Both the position numbers and the translations under genes were made by a program. The notes beneath the pieces are model-generated. The model was not told the origin of the DNA, ran no database searches, and saw nothing but the letters and a program-made list of their open reading frames with translations. 64,000 nt of DNA from a virus (Duplodnaviria > Heunggongvirae > Uroviricota > Caudoviricetes), in IMG/VR virus record IMGVR_UViG_3300024268_000023; one strand, 5' to 3'. This document shows, one piece after another, positions 1,948 to 25,105 of this stretch (its first letter is position 1; each line of letters starts with the position of its first letter).

Positions 1948-2778
1948 ATGAAGAAAAGCTTCGCCGAAAGGCAAAAAGAATACATCGACCAGGGGTATAT
2001 TTGCAATGTAATACCAGTACAAGGGGATATGGTTACCGTACTGGCCGAGTCCGAAGGATACAAAACCCCAATCAAAAACTCCCATGCTGCAGACGCTATT
2101 AAAGATAAAAAATACATTACCATGATCGTAGATTACCTTACTGAAAACGAAAGATACAGAGATCTTCTTCTTTTTGTAATGGGCATAAACTTCGGCCTCC
2201 GCTGCGGAGACCTTACTTCACTTCGTATCGGAGATGTTATTACCCCGGAAGGAAAAATTGTGAACACCTTCGAAATTATCGAAGAAAAAACAAAAAAGAG
2301 AAGACCTATGGCAATGAATGAGAGTGTTCTAAAGGCTCTTACGCTGTACTTGAAGAGTGAATATGGAGATAACCCCGTTGATCGTCGAGATTACCTCTTC
2401 ACCTCCAACTCCAACCGCAAAGGCAAGGATGGAGCTCCGCTCACAGTTCGCTCCATCGAGCGTCTTCTCAAATCCATCGTGAATGATGAACTTCACATCC
2501 CCGTTCACGCTTCAACCCATATGCTCCGTAAAACCTTCGCCTATCACTTCCTGATGGCAGCACCAGATAGAAATAGAGCACTAGAGTTACTCTCAATGCA
2601 ACTTAATCATAGTAGTATAGCCTATACTCTTAGATACATTGGTATAACCCAAGATGAAATTTTAGATACTTGTTTCCGTCTTGACCTTGGGTTTGAGGAT
2701 GGCCCTGTAAAGAATGATAATGTTGTAAATCTCTCTGATGCCAGAGAAAAACTTAAAGATAAAATTGTACAAGCCTGA
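1948..2778 (+). CDS. Tyrosine recombinase/integrase
   Basis: Catalytic set GLRCGDL (R), HMLRKTF (HxxR), LNHSS (H), TLRY (Y); RBS AAGGAG. Confidence 0.92.
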   Translation: MKKSFAERQKEYIDQGYICNVIPVQGDMVTVLAESEGYKTPIKNSHAADAIKDKKYITMIVDYLTENERYRDLLLFVMGINFGLRCGDLTSLRIGDVITPEGKIVNTFEIIEEKTKKRRPMAMNESVLKALTLYLKSEYGDNPVDRRDYLFTSNSNRKGKDGAPLTVRSIERLLKSIVNDELHIPVHASTHMLRKTFAYHFLMAAPDRNRALELLSMQLNHSSIAYTLRYIGITQDEILDTCFRLDLGFEDGPVKNDNVVNLSDAREKLKDKIVQA

Positions 2779-2888
2779 TAAGGCTTGGGAAAGCGAGCGA
2801 ATGCAAAGCATGAGCAATAGTCCAAGCCTAAATTTCAGACAAAAAGTTAGGGTATTTTTGGCTAAAATGGATATTTTGTATTAAATTT

Positions 2889-2904
2889 TGGCTTACTTAA
2901 GCCA
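2889..2904. promoter_or_regulatory. Inverted repeat of the TAAGCCA motif family
   Basis: TGGCTTA-CT-TAAGCCA; same architecture as 8389-8410. Confidence 0.6.
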
Positions 2905-3029
2905 TTTTTTAGACCTCTCCCTTAAAGATATAATATATATAATATAACTATTCATAAACTTATCTGTACTGGCGTTAAAGAAATAGGACAGTAATTCCAA
3001 TGAGACGAAGATTGCCTCGAATCGTGGCT

Positions 3030-3060
3030 AACCCGCATAACTAAGCCATTTTTTGGACTT
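3030..3060 (+). repeat. 31-bp direct repeat, copy 1
   Basis: AACCCGCATAACTAAGCCATTTTTTGGACTT, 30/31 identical to 8334-8364. Confidence 0.9.
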
Positions 3061-3104
3061 CGTCAAAAAAATTTTTCTTCAAAAAATAAGAATTTTCGAA
3101 AGAA

Positions 3105-4529
3105 GTGATGCATATTCCAAAATTTATTGAGCCAGATCCCCAACTTGCAATGGCTAAAATGGATGAAACGAAGTTTCATGTAGTTGAACCGCAGGCAACA
3201 AGTGAAACAAAGTTTCACGTAGTTGATAGCATTATGGGTAGTGGCAAAACGCAAGGAGCTATTAGCTATATCAATGCTCACCCTTTCAATAAATTTATAG
3301 TAATTACTCCATATTTAACTGAAATAAAAAGATTCGTTGAAGGATGCCCGGTTCATAAGTTCCGAGAGCCCGAACGTTGTGAAGAATTGAACCAAAATAA
3401 ATCAGATTCTTTTGAATCACTTTTAGATAAGAAGGAAAATATCGTCACTACGCATGTTTTGTTTTTTATGCAGTCGGATAACATTTACGAAAAATATAGG
3501 GGGTATAAACTTATCATCGATGAAACTCCAGAGCAAGCTTTTCGTAATGTTGATAATCTTACAGAAGCAGAAACAAGGTTTTTATTCAACGAATTTATCT
3601 CTCTCGATGAAAATAAATATGCAATATGGAAAGAGACTGCTCCTCCAGTTGGAAGATTTGGAGATATTAAGGAACTGGCCGATGCTGGGAGGCTTCGGGG
3701 GTATATAGCTGAAGATACCGACAAAATATCTAAGTGTCTTTTTGAGGTTTTTCCATCTGCCGTATTTGAAGAATTTGAAGAAGTAGTCTTACTGACATAT
3801 TTATTGCATGGGCAAATTTTTAGTGCTTACTTGGAAACAGAAAAAATCAACTACGATTACTGGTATGTAAAAAGCCAAGATGGAAAATATGAGTTTACAG
3901 AAGATTTTCAGCCAGACTCTGTGTATTTGTATAAAGATTTAATTAATATATACGGAGTAACAGAAAAAGGAAACGATAAACTTAATCGTATCGGCGATGG
4001 GCGATATGCTTTGAGCAAGTCTTGGTACAACGAAGCAAAGGAAGAAACATTTAATATTCTTTCGAACAACCTCATTAATTATTTCAAAAACATAACGTTT
4101 TCCAAAAGCGAAGACAGACTCTGGACAACCTTTCTGTCTTATGAGGGGGTAGCGGCAAAGAATAGGTTTCGAAAAAACTTTATTACCTGCAATCAGCGTG
4201 CAACTAACAACTATCGGAAGTGTAGCAACCTTGCGTACTTAACAAACAGATTTATGTCTCCATCTTATTCTATTATGTTTTCAAGATATGGTGTGTCAGT
4301 GGATAATGAGGCTTTTGCACTGGCGGAAATGTTACAGTGGATTTGGAGATCGGCAATTCGCGATGACAAAAGTATAAACATATATATTCCAAGCGAAAGA
4401 ATGAGAAATCTACTTATTGGTTGGCTTGCATTTGTGGCTCGAGATGAATGCCCAGAAAATGCTACATCAGCAAATATTTATGAGTGGCTAAAAACAATGG
4501 AAGCAAAAAGGCTTCCATTGAAAAAATAA
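3105..4529 (+). CDS. SF2 (DEAD/DEAH-like) helicase-family protein; true start may be slightly downstream
   Basis: Walker A DSIMGSGKT, Walker B LIIDE, C-terminal MLQWIWRSAIR; short internal duplication ETKFHVV x2. Confidence 0.75.
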   Translation: MMHIPKFIEPDPQLAMAKMDETKFHVVEPQATSETKFHVVDSIMGSGKTQGAISYINAHPFNKFIVITPYLTEIKRFVEGCPVHKFREPERCEELNQNKSDSFESLLDKKENIVTTHVLFFMQSDNIYEKYRGYKLIIDETPEQAFRNVDNLTEAETRFLFNEFISLDENKYAIWKETAPPVGRFGDIKELADAGRLRGYIAEDTDKISKCLFEVFPSAVFEEFEEVVLLTYLLHGQIFSAYLETEKINYDYWYVKSQDGKYEFTEDFQPDSVYLYKDLINIYGVTEKGNDKLNRIGDGRYALSKSWYNEAKEETFNILSNNLINYFKNITFSKSEDRLWTTFLSYEGVAAKNRFRKNFITCNQRATNNYRKCSNLAYLTNRFMSPSYSIMFSRYGVSVDNEAFALAEMLQWIWRSAIRDDKSINIYIPSERMRNLLIGWLAFVARDECPENATSANIYEWLKTMEAKRLPLKK

Positions 4530-5341: not shown

Positions 5342-5362
5342 TACGGTTTGAGGTGAGGAATC

Positions 5363-8322
5363 ACGCCACTTTCGGTTCAATACTCGCTCTACGCCCTTGA
5401 CACGTCAGCGTTTTTTACGGACGAAGAGCTTGTTATGGAAAGAAAGTTGCAACGGGTAAGAAACATTTTGGGGAAAAGGAAGGGCAGTTACGCTCAGCCT
5501 GATAACAAAACATCCCCTGCAATTAGAATGAAACATATTCATAAGCTCAACGAACTTGCGGTTATGTATAAGTCGGAGCTTAAAAGAATAATTGAGGAAA
5601 ATACACATCTTGTTCGCACGGTGCGACAAGAAAAGTTGACCAGAAGTAACGTGGTCGCCGTTTTTGATTCAACCCTAACGAGAGCATTGGAGATGCAGTC
5701 CGATGTGGTAAATGAGCAATTGGTCATTGTAAAGGTTTATTACTTCGGTGTGGCTGAATCAATGGTTAAAAACGGATTTATGATGAATGGTCAAAGATAT
5801 AAATTTTTCTCGGCAAGCGCCGGGCAAATAAGAACAAAGAAATTTGTAGCTATTAGGGAGGAAGACTACGAGAGAATATATATGAAGCTCTCCTGCGGGC
5901 TTGACATCCCGACTATAAATGAGGCCGGAGGTGTTAACACGAATAAGTACCTTGCGTACCAGGCGCTGTGCTCAAGTGCTACGGACGTCTGGGAAGACTT
6001 TGATATAGATAAGAGTATTGTTGTTGATGATTTTGAAACGACTGTAAGAGGGCTTGTAGACTTTATAGATGAAAAGGATTATTCCATTCAAAGAAAAGAA
6101 ATGGATGTTCCTATTCCGCATACAGATGGCTGCGGAATGATTCTCCCTAAGTTAAGTAAAAAGAATTTCATGGTACGAGCACCATGGATAAAAGGACTTT
6201 TAGCAGTTTTCCCGTTTGATAAATTCATCAGAGAAGAACGAAGAAACGGCAATAAAGACTGCGGATTTATCAGAGATATATATGGGCAGATACATGATGT
6301 GCTCGGCGAAGATATCCAGGTTATTTTTACAAAATCCCAAATAAAGCTATGGAAATATTATGAGAACTGGGATCAATACAAAGAATATTTTAAAAAGTAT
6401 GACTGCGAAGCCTGTAAATGCAATGAAGAGGAAGACTTTATAGAAGACGCTCGATTTAACTACCAGATGCTTCAAACTCTTACAAGCATTACCGATGAAG
6501 AACTTACAAAAATTGCAGAAAGAACCAATAAAACTTTGAGAGATGTTTCTTCCGATAGAGAAACAATGCTCAGAGTTTTCGGAGCAACGAAAACCAATTG
6601 TCATAAAACCTATTTCCAAAAAGCCTTACTTATGTACCCAGAGCTTTTGCAAGACCCTTATTGCAGAGAAACACTCAGAGATTTGAAAAACAGCCTTGAA
6701 AAATTTGGGAAGGCCGGGAGACTTGAAATTGATGGGAAATATCTTTTCTTGATACCAGATTTGTATGCAGCCTGTGAATATTGGTTTAAAGGAATTGAGA
6801 AGCCAGAGGGGCTTCTTAAAAATGGAGAAGTGTATTGCTCCGCTTATAAAAATAAAAAAGAACTTAACTGTTTAAGATCGCCGCACCTTTATCGTGAACA
6901 CTGTGTAAGAACCAATGTTGCTGATGAACACGTTGAAGCGAAGCGGTGGTTCTTGACGAACGGTATTTATACAAGCACTCACGATATGATATCCAAGGTG
7001 CTCCAATTCGATGAACAACATCGTCGCGCTCAGTGGAAACGCTGAGATGAAAACTTCGTGAACCTGGAAATCCAGGGTGTCGGTTATGGCCGGCTAACGG
7101 GGAACCGAGAGGAATCCCGTGCTAAGCGTAAAATAAAAATATCGCCTTTTGGAGGCGATAAAAATTGGACAATAATTAGAGAAAAATAACGATATTTTTA
7201 TTTTACGAAAGTATAACGACTATCGAAAGGGTAGCGGTAAAACCACGAGCTTTGCCGCGAGTAACTGAGTAGAGTAGCTTTTCGGTGAAACTCCGAAAGG
7301 CGAAGCGCGAAGCACCTAAACCTGCAAGGGCATGGTGATGATATAGTCTGCCCCGCGATAGCGGGACGGTTGACGGAGATAAAAGCTTAGTTGTCGCTGA
7401 TCCTACCTTGATAGAAGTAGCAAAGCGTGACTGCGAAGGAATAGTGCCTCTTTATTACAATATGGCAAAAGCTCCTGCCAGAGAAATAACTCCAGATGCT
7501 TTATATGAAGGAATGATAACAGCTTACACTTCCGGAAATATAGGGGCGGTAAGCAACAAAATAACAAAAATTTGGAATCTGCCGGAACCAGATTTAGATG
7601 CTATCAAACAACTTTGCTGTTTAAACAACTTTACTATAGATGCTGCAAAAACTCTTTATAAACCTTTGCCTCCAGACGACATTGCGGATCGCCTGAACGA
7701 GCTTACCAAAAATAAGCTTCCACATTTCTTTATATATGCAAAGGGCAAAAGAGAGTCGCAGGTAATGCCTGTGGGCAACGGATGCGTTGACAGGCTTGAA
7801 CATATCATTGAACACCGAAAATTTAACTTTCACCAAAAGCAACTTGGATATTTCGATTATCGTATGTTGATGGATAACGGGGATCTTGAATTAACCCCAG
7901 AGGACAACGTTCTGATAAAAGCTTATTATGATTTATCTTCTACGATAAATGGTCGAATCGTAGTAGATGAAAACGGCGGGGCCAATTACGATAGAGTATT
8001 CGGGGAATTCAGACAGGCCCTACTTGATATAGACCCGGACATCAACCATCTTGTTGATGTACTGGTAAAACAGACTTTTTGTGTAAAACGAAGCAAACAC
8101 AAGACTGCATTATGGCAGTGCTTCGGAGAAGAAATCTATCAAAATCTTTGCCGTAACATTCCAGAGAATACTATCATGTGTGAATGTTGCGGAAAGAGAA
8201 TTATTAAGACTGCTCGAAATCAAGTTAGATGCGAAGAGTGCGCTAAAGGTTTTAACAAAAAATGGTGTGCAGAGTATAGAGAAAGAAAAAGAGCAAATGA
8301 AGGTTCCGCGACAGTTTCTTAA
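5363..8322 (+). CDS. yonO: YonO-like single-subunit (two-barrel) RNA polymerase; exons 5363-7012 and 7369-8322, about 867 aa after splicing
   Basis: SAGQIRTKK, DGCGM, RSPHL motifs; splicing rebuilds QFDVDGDKSLV (DxDGD); frame is open from 5357 and includes DTSAFFTDEE upstream of the first ATG (5435). Confidence 0.9.
7013..7368 (+). ncRNA. Group I self-splicing intron (IA-like, no ORF), 356 nt
   Basis: Exon ends in U and intron ends in G; P1 CGAU|GA with UCGUCG gives a U.G pair at the splice site; P10 CAAC/GUUG; P2 CUCAGUG-GAAA-CGCUGAG; P4 ACGGG/UCCCGU; P7 GACUA (7218-22)/UAGUC (7344-48); P9 CCCGC-GAUA-GCGGG. Confidence 0.92.
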
Positions 8323-8653: not shown

Positions 8654-9860
8654 TACAAAAAGACGGGATGGTGAGAACGAACGTCAGTATATCTGGCGCA
8701 TTGGGCAGATGGTTGATAAAGGGGAAATATCTTCTTGGAAAGATGTAGCTCCCATTATTAACGCAGAATGGCGTGAAGATGAATCCGAATACAGAGATGA
8801 GAGCGCCTATCGTAAACCATATCAATACGCCAAAGGATTCTACGAAGATGTGTTCAGCGGTTTTGCAGATCGGGAATATATGAAAGAGCTCGAAGAAAAG
8901 CTAATCGCTATCAAAAAAGAAGGCATGAGAACTGCCGATCAGCGCAGAGAGTTCAATAAGCTTATTCGAAAGGAAGCCCGAACTGAACATCTCTATGATG
9001 TTATTCGTGAGGTAGCTAAGAACATCAATGAGGAAAAACCGATGGATTTTGATTGTTTTTCAGAGGTTTTTGATTCTGACAAAGAGGCCGTCCTTTGTTT
9101 TGCTGATTGGCATTATGGAATGGTAACGGACAACATTTGGCAAAAGTATAACCCTAAGATTTGTCGGGAGAGAGTAGAAGAACTGGTTTGGAGAACGAAA
9201 AATTATTTAAGATCCCATAAAGTTCGGAAGTTGCATATAGTTTGTCTCGGAGACGTCGCGCATGGCGCAATTCACTCTACTTGCAGAGTAGCTTCTGAAG
9301 AAAATACAGTAGATCAGCTTATACACGTAGCAGAACTGATGGCTGAAGCAATAAATGAACTTTCTTCTTGCGTGGAAGACGTATATGTTTATTCTACTTA
9401 TGGCAATCACATGAGAACAATTCAAAATAAAGCTGATAGTATTCATTCTGACAACATGGAAAAAATTCTCCCGTGGTGGTTGGCAGAAAGATTCGCAGAC
9501 AGAATTGATGTGCATATTGTAGAAGCTGATTATAAAGAATTTATTTGGTTTAAAGTTGCAGGATATAACGTTTGTTGTACTCATGGGGATTTGGATAACT
9601 TCAAAGATCTTGGTGTTACGCTGAATACTCTTTTTACAAAAAAGTTTGGTGAAACGATAGATTATACTTTTTCGGCAGACAAGCATCACTTAGAAGAGCT
9701 TGAGCGCTACGACATTGAAAGCGTGCTCATTCGTTCTCTCTGTGGAACGGATGATTATGCAAATGAGCACCGGCTTTATTCCAGTGCAGGTCAATCGCTA
9801 TTTATTTTTGACCCCCAGTATGGGAGAGAAGCTACATATAATATAAAATTCAAAAATTGA
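8646..9860 (+). CDS. Calcineurin-like metallophosphoesterase (positionally like SPbeta YonJ)
   Basis: DWH, GD, GNH, HGD, DKHH metal-binding motifs. Confidence 0.85.
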   Translation: MVDTKRRDGENERQYIWRIGQMVDKGEISSWKDVAPIINAEWREDESEYRDESAYRKPYQYAKGFYEDVFSGFADREYMKELEEKLIAIKKEGMRTADQRREFNKLIRKEARTEHLYDVIREVAKNINEEKPMDFDCFSEVFDSDKEAVLCFADWHYGMVTDNIWQKYNPKICRERVEELVWRTKNYLRSHKVRKLHIVCLGDVAHGAIHSTCRVASEENTVDQLIHVAELMAEAINELSSCVEDVYVYSTYGNHMRTIQNKADSIHSDNMEKILPWWLAERFADRIDVHIVEADYKEFIWFKVAGYNVCCTHGDLDNFKDLGVTLNTLFTKKFGETIDYTFSADKHHLEELERYDIESVLIRSLCGTDDYANEHRLYSSAGQSLFIFDPQYGREATYNIKFKN

Positions 9861-9880
9861 AAGGTTAAACTGGATTTTTA

Positions 9881-10501
9881 ATGGCAGATGTTGGTGAACC
9901 CATTGTAATTGTTAATGAAGTACCTTCTGTTACGAAGGATGAAATGTTTATGGATGACCTTGAAAAAAGAAAACTTTTTCTCGAGGGCGAAATTAACGAA
10001 GATACCTTTAGACAGGTAGGTTATCATATTCTGAAAATTAATGAGGAGGATAAAAATCTTCCCGCAGATAAAAGAAAACCTATTAAGCTTTATGTTGCCT
10101 GTTACGGAGGAAGTGTTATTCAAGGACTTACTCTTATCAATATTATTAAATCTAGTATTACGCCAATTTATACAATAGTAGTTGGTCAAGCTTACTCTAT
10201 GGCTTTCTATATTGGAATTAGCGGTAAAAAGAGATTTGCATTCCCCGAGTCCACCTATCTAATTCACGATGGAGGCATTGGTATCCAGACTTCTACCAGC
10301 AAGGTAAAAGACTATGTTGCTTTTGACGATCAGATTAACAAAAAGCTGCAAGCAATTGTTGTCGAACATACAAAATTGACTTCAGAGGAACTTGGAGAAA
10401 AAGAAAGAATAGAATGGTACCTCTTTGCAGATGAAGCAAAAGAAAAAGGTATTGTTGATTATATTATTGGTGAAGATTGCACGCTTGAGGAGGTCTTTTG
10501 A
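9881..10501 (+). CDS. clpP: ClpP-family protease
   Basis: GGSV, AYSMA (Ser), LIHD (His); Glu appears at the usual catalytic Asp position (IEWY). Confidence 0.85.
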   Translation: MADVGEPIVIVNEVPSVTKDEMFMDDLEKRKLFLEGEINEDTFRQVGYHILKINEEDKNLPADKRKPIKLYVACYGGSVIQGLTLINIIKSSITPIYTIVVGQAYSMAFYIGISGKKRFAFPESTYLIHDGGIGIQTSTSKVKDYVAFDDQINKKLQAIVVEHTKLTSEELGEKERIEWYLFADEAKEKGIVDYIIGEDCTLEEVF

Positions 10502-10503
10502 GC

Positions 10504-11217
10504 ATGAGCAAAAAACGTCCGAAATCTTTTGAGCACGAGCACGAAGATGCTCCAGAAACCCTTAAGGGCCATTATTTTTATGGTTTAAAATTAGACCCCG
10601 AACAGGAAGCGTTTAGAGATGCTATTTATAATGATGACAACGATATTATATTCTGTAATGCTGTAGCTGGATGCGGAAAAACTCTTATTGCTATTGCAAC
10701 AGCTAATCTTATGGTTGAATATGGTAAATACGATGGTATTGTATATATCGTGTCACCGGTGCAAGAAGAAAGAATTGGATTTTTGCCTGGAAGTGCTGAC
10801 GAGAAAATAGGGCCATACGGCGCGCCGCTTTATGATGCCCTGATGAAAATTAATGTTGATCCGATGCATGCAATTAATCAGAGTTCTATCTGGACACAAA
10901 AAGAAGGTACTGGATATATTGATTGCATAGGACATGTTTATCTCAGAGGATGCAATCTCGAAAATAAAATAATTGTTGTGGAAGAATCACAGAACTACTA
11001 TAAAGATGAGCTTAAAAAGACGCTCACCAGAGTTTGCGAAAATTCAAAAACAATTGTAATCGGACATACTGGACAATGCGATCTTTATCATTGCCCTGAG
11101 CACAGTGGATTTGCGGCATACATTGAACATTTTAAAGATAAAGAGCGTTGTGCTGTATGCGAACTAACCACAAACCACAGAGGTTGGGTCAGTTCATGGG
11201 CAGATGAACTTGAATGA
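10504..11217 (+). CDS. phoH: PhoH-family ATPase
   Basis: AVAGCGKT Walker A, RGCNL...EESQN, GHTGQCD. Confidence 0.88.
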   Translation: MSKKRPKSFEHEHEDAPETLKGHYFYGLKLDPEQEAFRDAIYNDDNDIIFCNAVAGCGKTLIAIATANLMVEYGKYDGIVYIVSPVQEERIGFLPGSADEKIGPYGAPLYDALMKINVDPMHAINQSSIWTQKEGTGYIDCIGHVYLRGCNLENKIIVVEESQNYYKDELKKTLTRVCENSKTIVIGHTGQCDLYHCPEHSGFAAYIEHFKDKERCAVCELTTNHRGWVSSWADELE

Positions 11218-23870: not shown

Positions 23871-24572
23871 ATGTCTGTTAATATGGCTAACCGCGAAGTT
23901 TGCAATGCAATCTTTAGAGATTATGCAACTAAAAAACCGGTTCTTTATGTAGACTATGCAAACACTACCACCACTGAAATCACCGGCGAAAATACTCCCG
24001 CTTATGGCGGATGGGGCCATCCTAAACGTATTATTTTCAGCGGTGAAAAAGGCGGTACTATTGCTTTTGAATTCCAGGTAGCACCTTTCCAGCTTTATGC
24101 TCTTATGTCTGGTGCAGAAGTCAAGAATGAAGCAAAACTTGTTGTACGTGAAGTAATCACGTGCGTAGAAGCGAGCAAACTTCCGGGCATTACCGACGCT
24201 GACCTTTTCAGCATTTTTGCCGAAGGGGACGATCTTGGTACCGAAGTTCAGCTTGCAACTGTTGAAGCTGACAAAAAATATATTGTCTATCATGAAAAAA
24301 CTGTAACAGGAACTGCCGGCTCTGTTCAATATCTTCATATTGATACCAAAACTTTCCCGAAAGCACTTTCTATTGATGCAGATACGATTTATAAAACTGA
24401 AGATGAAGATGAAGTCGCAATGCATCTTCGTGTTTATAAATGCCAGCCTCAGCCTCAGTTTACTCTTACTCATGCAAACTCTGGCGATCCCGGCACTATC
24501 ACTCTTACCTGCGATCTTATGGCAGACGAGGAAGGTAACTTTATCGATCTCATTGCTATTGATGAAGATTGA
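23871..24572 (+). CDS. Major tail (tube) protein
   Basis: ANREVCN...YANTTTTEITGE...GGWG; C-terminal GDPGTITLTCD; highly-expressed-type codons. Confidence 0.75.
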   Translation: MSVNMANREVCNAIFRDYATKKPVLYVDYANTTTTEITGENTPAYGGWGHPKRIIFSGEKGGTIAFEFQVAPFQLYALMSGAEVKNEAKLVVREVITCVEASKLPGITDADLFSIFAEGDDLGTEVQLATVEADKKYIVYHEKTVTGTAGSVQYLHIDTKTFPKALSIDADTIYKTEDEDEVAMHLRVYKCQPQPQFTLTHANSGDPGTITLTCDLMADEEGNFIDLIAIDED

Positions 24573-24581
24573 TAGCTATTT

Positions 24582-24612
24582 AAAAGGGAGAGCTTTTGCT
24601 CTCCCTTTTGTT
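24582..24612 (+). terminator. Intrinsic terminator (possibly bidirectional)
   Basis: AAAAGGGAGAGC-TTTT-GCTCTCCCTTTT. Confidence 0.85.
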
Positions 24613-24625
24613 TGGAGAAATTGAA

Positions 24626-25105
24626 ATGAAACTATTAAGTTTTGACCAGGCGATGAATTTGACTGGTTATGCAGTTTTTACAAAATCAAAATTGAAAAAG
24701 TTCGGGCTTATAGATTGCCATAACCTATCTGGAGATGAGCGTCTTCAAAAAATGATTTCTGAAATTTATGCGCTTATAGATTTAACTAAACCTGATTTTG
24801 TTGTAGTTGAGAATGTTCAAAGTCAGGCGAATATGCAAGCCGTAATAATGTTGGCACGGTTGCAAGGTGCCATCATTGGATATTGTTTTAAAAAGAATAT
24901 CCCTTGGAAAATGTATTTACCTACACAGTGGCGTAAATTAATCGGAATCAGACAAGGTAAAGGCATTAAAAGAGCAGAACTGAAAGCTCAATCTTTAGAA
25001 TTTGTAAAAACAATTACGAAAGAACCTGTTAACGAGGATGTAGCTGAGGCTATCTCGATAGGGTGTGCATATTTAAAGGAATTAAAGGATTTAGAGGAGA
25101 AGTAA
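24626..25105 (+). CDS. ruvC: RuvC-like Holliday junction resolvase
   Basis: LSFDQ..TGYAV, VVVE, EDVAEAISIG acidic triad pattern. Confidence 0.75.
   Translation: MKLLSFDQAMNLTGYAVFTKSKLKKFGLIDCHNLSGDERLQKMISEIYALIDLTKPDFVVVENVQSQANMQAVIMLARLQGAIIGYCFKKNIPWKMYLPTQWRKLIGIRQGKGIKRAELKAQSLEFVKTITKEPVNEDVAEAISIGCAYLKELKDLEEK

Follow-up and report, generated by a model that had tools for sequence, protein, structure and literature searches.

What happens to an RNA polymerase gene when the codons for its catalytic metal loop lie 356 nucleotides (nt) apart? The question is raised by a 64,000-nt stretch of tailed-phage DNA (hereafter the window) from the IMG/VR virus record IMGVR_UViG_3300024268_000023 (Caudoviricetes), in which a gene related to yonO of phage SPbeta is interrupted within the codons for the DxDGD motif. 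An earlier note, made from the sequence alone, had proposed that a group I intron occupies positions 7013-7368. We consider it highly probable that this segment is a group I intron of subgroup IA type, free of any sizeable open reading frame (ORF), in the DxDGD loop of the phage's only YonO-type polymerase gene. This reading is carried by the anatomy of the sequence, the exact restoration of frame and motif when the flanks are joined, membership in a structured-RNA family with covariation, and homologues that are interrupted at the same site.

The polymerase gene and its interruption

The gene and the element that divides it are laid out as follows.

5357..7012, + strand: exon 1 of the YonO-type RNA polymerase, ending ..ISKVLQFD, the last residue being the first catalytic Asp
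7013..7368, + strand: highly probable group I intron, subgroup IA (td/Twort-like), 356 nt (Rfam RF00028, custom model R1, helices, same-site homologues)
7369..8322, + strand: exon 2 of the polymerase, beginning VDGD (second and third catalytic Asp), stop codon at 8320-8322

Both halves matched a single PHROG profile, phrog_8308: exon 1 aligned to its positions 32-550 (E 8e-185), and the alignment of exon 2 ran on without a gap from 551 to 845 (E 2e-55). Because positions 550 and 551 abut across the exons, the junction is exact to the residue. Both exons also matched RdRP (PF05183; exon 1, E 4.8e-11), the Pfam family gathering two-barrel polymerases of YonO type. At the DNA level, the gene matched SPbeta yonO and one Clostridium phage D-1873 gene. 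The protein encoded by the joined exons shares 45% identity with SPbeta YonO (residues 60-818, ~760 residues) and 51% with CLG_B2308 of phage D-1873 (~760 residues). These comparisons confirm, at the level of sequence, the assignment made in the earlier note, namely that the gene encodes a YonO-family single-chain two-barrel RNA polymerase. In SPbeta, the Asp triad of YonO is catalytic and essential, and the enzyme transcribes the late operon (Forrest et al. 2017, PMC5467207); by analogy, DNA-dependent RNA synthesis and late-gene transcription would be the functions of the enzyme encoded in the window. The IMG/VR record that contains the window (127,746 bp, estimated to be 99% complete) carries the YonO-type gene in a single copy.

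The insertion is in phase 0, between the codon for the first Asp and that for the x of DxDGD. Exon 1 ends with TTC GAT at 7012 and exon 2 begins with GTT GAC GGA GAT at 7369, and the catalytic triad DVDGD arises solely when the exons are joined (GAT to GTT, giving FD-VDGD). The uninterrupted products of SPbeta yonO and the D-1873 gene read ..LLQFDNDGDKALI.. and ..ILMFDVDGDKSLV.. at the motif, with the metal loops FDNDGDKALI and FDVDGDKSLV, respectively. From 7369, the frame of exon 2 reads VDGDKSLVVADPTLIEVAKR.. and stays open to the stop at 8320-8322. Without splicing, the frame reads FDEQHRRAQWKR, with EQHRRAQWKR past 7012, and then meets the stop TGA at 7043-7045; unspliced RNA loses the metal loop. 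The ORF listing of the window contains two ORFs, 5435-7045 and 7408-8322, which means that an automatic annotator would split the polymerase gene and lose the motif. On all these points, the insertion within the DxDGD codons, the loss of the loop from unspliced RNA and the split annotation, the earlier note was right.

The 5' end of the gene is also unusual. The polymerase frame is open from 5357, its first ATG, GTG or TTG is ATG 5435, and none of the three codons occurs in that frame between the stop TGA at 5354-5356 and 5435. The conserved N-terminal motif LYALDTSAFF (compare IYSIDTSAFY in YonO) is encoded upstream of ATG 5435, and GAGGTGAGGA (5349-5358) stands 5' of ATC 5360 and ACG 5363. 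Since no ATG, GTG or TTG precedes 5435 and GAGGTGAGGA lies ahead of ATC 5360 and ACG 5363, the start codon of the polymerase is likely to be non-canonical.

The ribozyme core and its family

The core helices were assigned by reading the sequence against the td/Twort pattern. The 16 helices comprise P1, P2, P3, two extra hairpins, P4, P5, P6, P6a, P7, P7.1 (two segments), P7.2, P8, P8a and P9, and all of them pair at every position. All elements listed lie on the + strand.

7009-7014/7021-7026: P1, exon CGAU and intron GA pairing with the guide UCGUCG
7029-7035/7040-7046: P2, 7 bp with a GAAA tetraloop, containing the in-frame stop TGA 7043-7045
7054-7060 (CUUCGUG)/7306-7312 (CGCGAAG): P3, from pairing and covariation
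7063-7067/7072-7076: extra J3/4 hairpin 1, paired, loop AAAU, followed by GUGU
7079-7084/7089-7094: extra J3/4 hairpin 2, paired
7097-7102/7115-7120: P4, fully paired
7105-7106/7111-7112: P5, fully paired, GAGA loop
7121-7123/7210-7212: P6, fully paired
7127-7144/7190-7207: P6a, 18 bp around a 45-nt AT-rich loop, the place of the endonuclease gene in relatives
7218-7223 (GACUAU)/7343-7348 (AUAGUC): P7, the guanosine-binding helix, from pairing and covariation
7229-7230/7265-7266 and 7234-7238/7254-7258: P7.1, from pairing and RNAalifold
7277-7285/7293-7301: P7.2, from pairing and RNAalifold
7313-7316/7334-7337: P8, from pairing and RNAalifold
7321-7323/7328-7330: P8a, the inner helix of P8, GCAA loop
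7352-7356/7361-7365: P9, fully paired, GAUA loop
7368: terminal guanosine at the 3' splice site, from the sequence

The 5' splice site is marked by the U7012.G7023 wobble in P1, the 3' strand of P7 falls within the family-invariant GAUAUAGUC, and GNRA loops close P2 (GAAA), P5 (GAGA) and P8a (GCAA). The P4-P6 and P3-P8 domains of the group I core are both represented, P7 and P3 being arranged as a pseudoknot. The extra helices P7.1 and P7.2, located past P7 and ahead of the 3' strand of P3, place the element in subgroup IA. The minimum-free-energy fold had a z-score of -5.8 against 100 shuffles. By analogy with td, GCCGGC just before P4 was considered as an alternative 5' strand of P3 and rejected: it is without a partner, and CUUCGUG/CGCGAAG co-varies. 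A homing endonuclease gene was sought in the intron and none was found, the sole intron ORF being a 43-codon frame at 7058-7189.

The general group I model of Rfam, RF00028, matched 7003-7367 end to end (model positions 1-253) in a local search, with 26.3 bits and an E-value of 1.2e-4 (6e-6 over the genome). A search of the whole window by E-value missed the intron, which the local search alone recovered. We also built a covariance model, R1, on 60 sequences of related phage introns, with the window left out; it matched 7211-7350 with 99 bits (E 2.6e-20, model positions 1-134), the only significant match in the 64 kb. Members of the training set scored alike, at 95-107 bits (L030 and L006; such L-numbers are labels of compared stretches, mostly IMG/VR viral contigs). 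Outside the training set, R1 gave 82 bits with the split nrdD of phage EFP01 and 91 bits with the split DNA polymerase I of a Bacillus Agatevirus; it matched several sites in phage Twort (72 bits at most), including an adjacent trio beside an annotated intron-encoded nuclease, as well as the annotated intron of SPO1 gene 31 with 41.5 bits and the T4 td intron with 32 bits. The performance of RF00028 on the L030 gene is instructive: two of its introns pass, at 59 and 67 bits, and the one at the DxDGD site goes unreported, which indicates that the general model is weak for this subfamily.

Covariation extends through the family. The 17-nt motif in P7/J7-7.1 was present in more than 108 IMG/VR stretches among the matches listed. 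When 61 distinct 3' halves were aligned, 37 columns proved invariant, and from these halves RNAalifold recovered P7, P7.1, P7.2 and P8, with compensatory double changes in 16 of the 22 pairs; most pairs of P7.1 and P7.2 are double-changed with pairing kept in 19-35 sequences. The fourth pair of P7 is U-A in 66 and C-G in 2 of 68 distinct members, with no mismatches, and P3, whose strands lie up to 1 kb apart, is represented by at least 12 compensating sequences in the AAAA-P3-AAC context. Relative to the window copy, same-site copies carry compensatory changes in the first J3/4 hairpin, P2, P3 and P4; compensatory variants of P2 were found in L006, L058 and L061, and in P4 of L006 a G-C pair is replaced by A-U. 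Both J3/4 hairpins recur, with compensatory stem changes and the AAAU loop of the first unchanged, in L006, L050, L052, L056, L058, L061, L064, L078 and L142, and are absent in L030. The guide itself co-varies with the exon, being UUUGAU/GUCAAA in L006, in which the Phe codon is TTT, UUCGAU/GUCGAA elsewhere at the same site, and UACAGU/GCUGUA at another insertion point in L052 and L061.

Two other signals turned up in the searches of the window. A minus-strand terminator-like hairpin with a T run at 7160-7140, in the P6a loop, is ascribed to chance (one site against 1.1 expected from shuffles); weak matches to the small RNAs RsaOG and Ref84 in the local Rfam search correspond to this same hairpin. 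At 24551-24632, a weak palindromic match to Termite-leu (RF01730) was recorded on both strands, at 28-30 bits against a cut-off of 51.

Same-site homologues and competing explanations

The survey of homologues for the same insertion site that the earlier note had suggested was carried out by tblastn with the joined protein. Among 34 viral-contig homologues, 33 cover the site; 29 of these are continuous and 4 are interrupted exactly there, by 1022 nt (L006/L007) or 245 nt (L030/L032). A motif search added further intron copies, in L058, L078/L108/L130, L050, L056, L064 and L142. The boundary is identical, FD/VDGD (the slash marks the insertion point), in L006/L007/L128, L058 and L078/L108/L130, and introns of FD/CDGD type are found in L050, L056, L064 and L142. 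Most same-site relatives are ~1 kb long with an ORF in P6a, whereas the window copy is 356 nt long and ORF-less. As the intron of L006 keeps the P6a flanks, which there enclose a 210-aa ORF with an HNH_3 domain, the window intron is, judged by this comparison, an ORF-less member of a mobile lineage; most likely, it is the relic of a mobile intron whose homing endonuclease gene was lost or never present. In all relatives, an in-frame stop occurs 0-12 codons past the 5' splice site; such a stop is usual in phage introns and keeps ribosomes out of the core.

In the metal-loop codons, introns of the family occupy three clean positions, all within 11 nt.

After the first base of the Phe codon (Q-F/DVDGD): L052/L067, L061 and L119 (intron coordinates: L052, 914-1380; L061, 575-1600; L119, ~960-1000)
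After the first Asp codon: the window and the same-site copies
After the second Asp codon (MDND/GDMM): L114 (intron coordinates 9700-10700)

A second hot spot lies ~90 residues downstream (NNFTID/..); of 32 viral-contig homologues, 8 have an interruption there. The gene in L030 (also L032/L103) harbors three group I introns, at 1344-1590, 2638-2882 and 3165-3380, which correspond to residues ~172, 526 and ~616 of the joined protein, the middle one being at the DxDGD site. At 2875-2890 of L030, the exons seem to join in frame only if the intron ends in A rather than G (..CAUCUA, followed by UGCGAC), an alternative being a 5' splice site two bases beyond the U.G wobble; in L117 (~2395-2420), too, a final A (..GUGUCAA, followed by GGAGAU) seems to be required. 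The close relatives L050, L064 and L142 have a normal terminal G.

We infer from the sequence that the intron is spliced in the cell in a guanosine-initiated reaction. The pre-mRNA would fold, and free guanosine would attack after the wobble-paired U7012 of P1; G7368 would then enter the guanosine site of P7, and the exons would be joined to give ..QFD-VDGD... Ribosomes on unspliced RNA would be expected to halt at UGA 7043-7045 in P2, ahead of the catalytic core, and translation of that RNA would end there.

Several observations weigh against the intron as a functional element, or against the strength of the evidence for it. The covariance-model search proposed as a check in the earlier note gave a divided answer: the purpose-built R1 responded strongly, and RF00028, at 26.3 bits, stayed below its gathering score of 50, so that the intron is not reported when Rfam is run on the whole window at the gathering threshold. 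The R1 match is in turn partly circular, because the 17-nt pattern used to collect its training sequences came from the window intron, L006 and L030; the calibration of R1 was brief, and its E-values are rough. The list of visible core pairings in the earlier note stands for P1 with its U.G wobble, P2, P4, P7, P9 and the terminal G, but P10, which it also included, is weak: 4 bp (GUUG 7369-7372/CAAC 7016-7019), apart from P1. A P10 between exon 2 and the 5' portion of the guide was sought in the relatives; it was not conserved, and it is strong only in the FD/CDGD lineage (UGCGAC/GUCGCA). The two J3/4 hairpins (7063-7076 and 7079-7094) lie outside the textbook IA core. A search of sequencing runs found no run recorded as RNA that contains the stretch, and one run of guessed type with 6% of its words. 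Finally, the dependence of late transcription on the spliced polymerase, which may be supposed for this phage, is extrapolated from SPbeta YonO (PMC5467207); the single polymerase copy in a genome estimated to be 99% complete lends it some support.

Could this be a decayed intron that has lost splicing, in a polymerase gene that is dead or dying? The intron has no endonuclease gene and hence no upkeep by homing, its Rfam score is low, and the run search yielded no RNA data, all of which would suit decay. We nevertheless regard decay as improbable: all helices are fully paired, the R1 score lies inside the span set by the training members, the two exons each have an intact open frame and retain conserved motifs, and the genome holds no other copy of the polymerase. 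A gene that is naturally split, with two polypeptides that assemble without RNA splicing, would explain why ORF callers yield two ORFs, and split large subunits do exist in some multisubunit RNA polymerases. Here, however, the break falls inside a five-residue metal loop, the frame of exon 2 has no ATG, GTG or TTG before TTG 7408, 13 codons past VDGD, and what separates the halves is no spacer but a complete ribozyme fold; we give this explanation next to no credence.

The intron might also have been co-opted as a gate or timer that tunes the late programme through splicing efficiency, in response to guanosine triphosphate level, translation or temperature. Its location in the single RNA polymerase gene, the retention of an ORF-less intron and the apparent lack of a canonical start codon in the same gene are compatible with such a role. 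There is no sign of regulation, however, and 29 of the 33 homologues are free of an intron at the site; the patchy presence, with several lineages of intron and several points of insertion, is the mark of homing rather than of a conserved regulatory device, and we think a gate unlikely. A broader scenario is conceivable but speculative, and we hold it to be unlikely as well. In it, the ~11 nt encoding F-D-x-D would be a recurrent homing hot spot, open to several lineages of intron at three or more points. Copies with an endonuclease would serve as weapons between co-infecting phages by cutting a rival's only late polymerase gene, and ORF-less survivors such as the window intron would be kept because they immunise the site or because their splicing now gates the late programme. 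The reading that we favor remains an ORF-less IA-type intron in a working polymerase gene.

Introns of yonO in cultured phages and known systems

The break at NNFTID/FAKTL (YonO residue 625/626) is found in cultured phages, in which yonO of phi3T, Goe11 and BUCT083 is broken by a group I-like insert.

phi3T (L150): yonO insert at 2155-2554
Goe11 (L149): yonO insert at 2155-3444
BUCT083 (L151): yonO insert at 2155-3444

The inserts are either ~400 nt long and ORF-less (phi3T) or ~1.29 kb long, with a GIY-YIG gene in BUCT083 and, it would seem, in Goe11; they scored 32-33 bits with R1, and that of phi3T scored 19.7 bits with RF00028. To judge from identical spans, yonO of SPR, Goe14 and SPbetaL3-L7 would be split in the same manner. 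In the split genes of phi3T, Goe11 and BUCT083, identity to SPbeta YonO is 98-99% for exon 1 and only ~80% for exon 2, a divergence that may reflect recombination beside the intron. Among the 34 phage records that gave a match in the cultured-phage collection, not one is broken at DxDGD.

Our searches of open-access papers on YonO, phi3T, SPbeta and introns turned up no account of an intron in a gene of yonO type; a review of SPbeta and a preprint on its relatives place introns only in bnrdE and bnrdF or mention none. The novelty at which the earlier note hinted is nevertheless smaller than it seemed, as such introns are common in public sequences. The targeting of active sites by homing introns is textbook knowledge (PMC12908238), and the element is a familiar genetic parasite of phages rather than a new mechanism. 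What the locus adds is that YonO-type polymerases join the essential phage genes that group I introns have colonised at active-site codons, and that this colonisation is frequent, reaching approximately 1 in 8 viral-contig homologues at the DxDGD site and 1 in 4 at the second site. Annotation suffers accordingly: gene calling turns the one late-type RNA polymerase gene of the phage into two unrelated ORFs, with loss of the catalytic motif, and the GenBank records of model phages contain the same error, listing two genes (phi3T_60/59; yonO_1/yonO_2 of Goe11). The practical gain is a correct gene model and a subfamily covariance model that finds introns missed by Rfam, and phi3T and Goe11 are cultivable systems suited to the study of yonO intron splicing.

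Among known systems, SPbeta yonO (L001) encodes a homologous enzyme with the same Asp triad and is intron-free, with no R1 match. The introns of phi3T, Goe11 and BUCT083 share their host gene family with the window, and ORF callers give two genes in each case, but they lie at a different site ~90 residues downstream and belong to a different intron subfamily. By blastn and R1, the nearest relatives in cultured phages are the inserts in nrdD of EFP01 and in the DNA polymerase I gene of SDFMU_Pbc (Agatevirus), which, as in the window, sit between the halves of split genes; the host genes differ, and in neither record is the insert labelled an intron.

Breaks at the catalytic motif have been noted in another polymerase family as well: in zeta-group crAss-like phages, RNA polymerase ORFs are broken within the DxDxD motif, which the authors left unexplained (Yutin et al., PMC7886860). 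The position of the break is alike, whereas the enzyme family is another one and the interrupting element in the window is a defined ribozyme. Introns are also known in the multisubunit RNA polymerase genes of the jumbo phages AR9 and PhiPA3, where, as in the window, a mobile element resides in a gene for a transcription enzyme, although of a different family. In its core, the window intron resembles the subgroup IA introns of Twort orf142 and nrdE, of the DNA polymerase gene of SPO1 (gene 31) and of T4 td, with which it shares P7.1 and P7.2, the GACUAU/AUAGUC P7, a td-like P4-P5 and an early stop past the 5' splice site. Self-splicing has been proven for the Twort, SPO1 and td introns. The window intron differs from them in its two extra J3/4 hairpins, in lacking an endonuclease ORF, and in its host, a YonO-type polymerase gene rather than a gene for DNA metabolism or structure.

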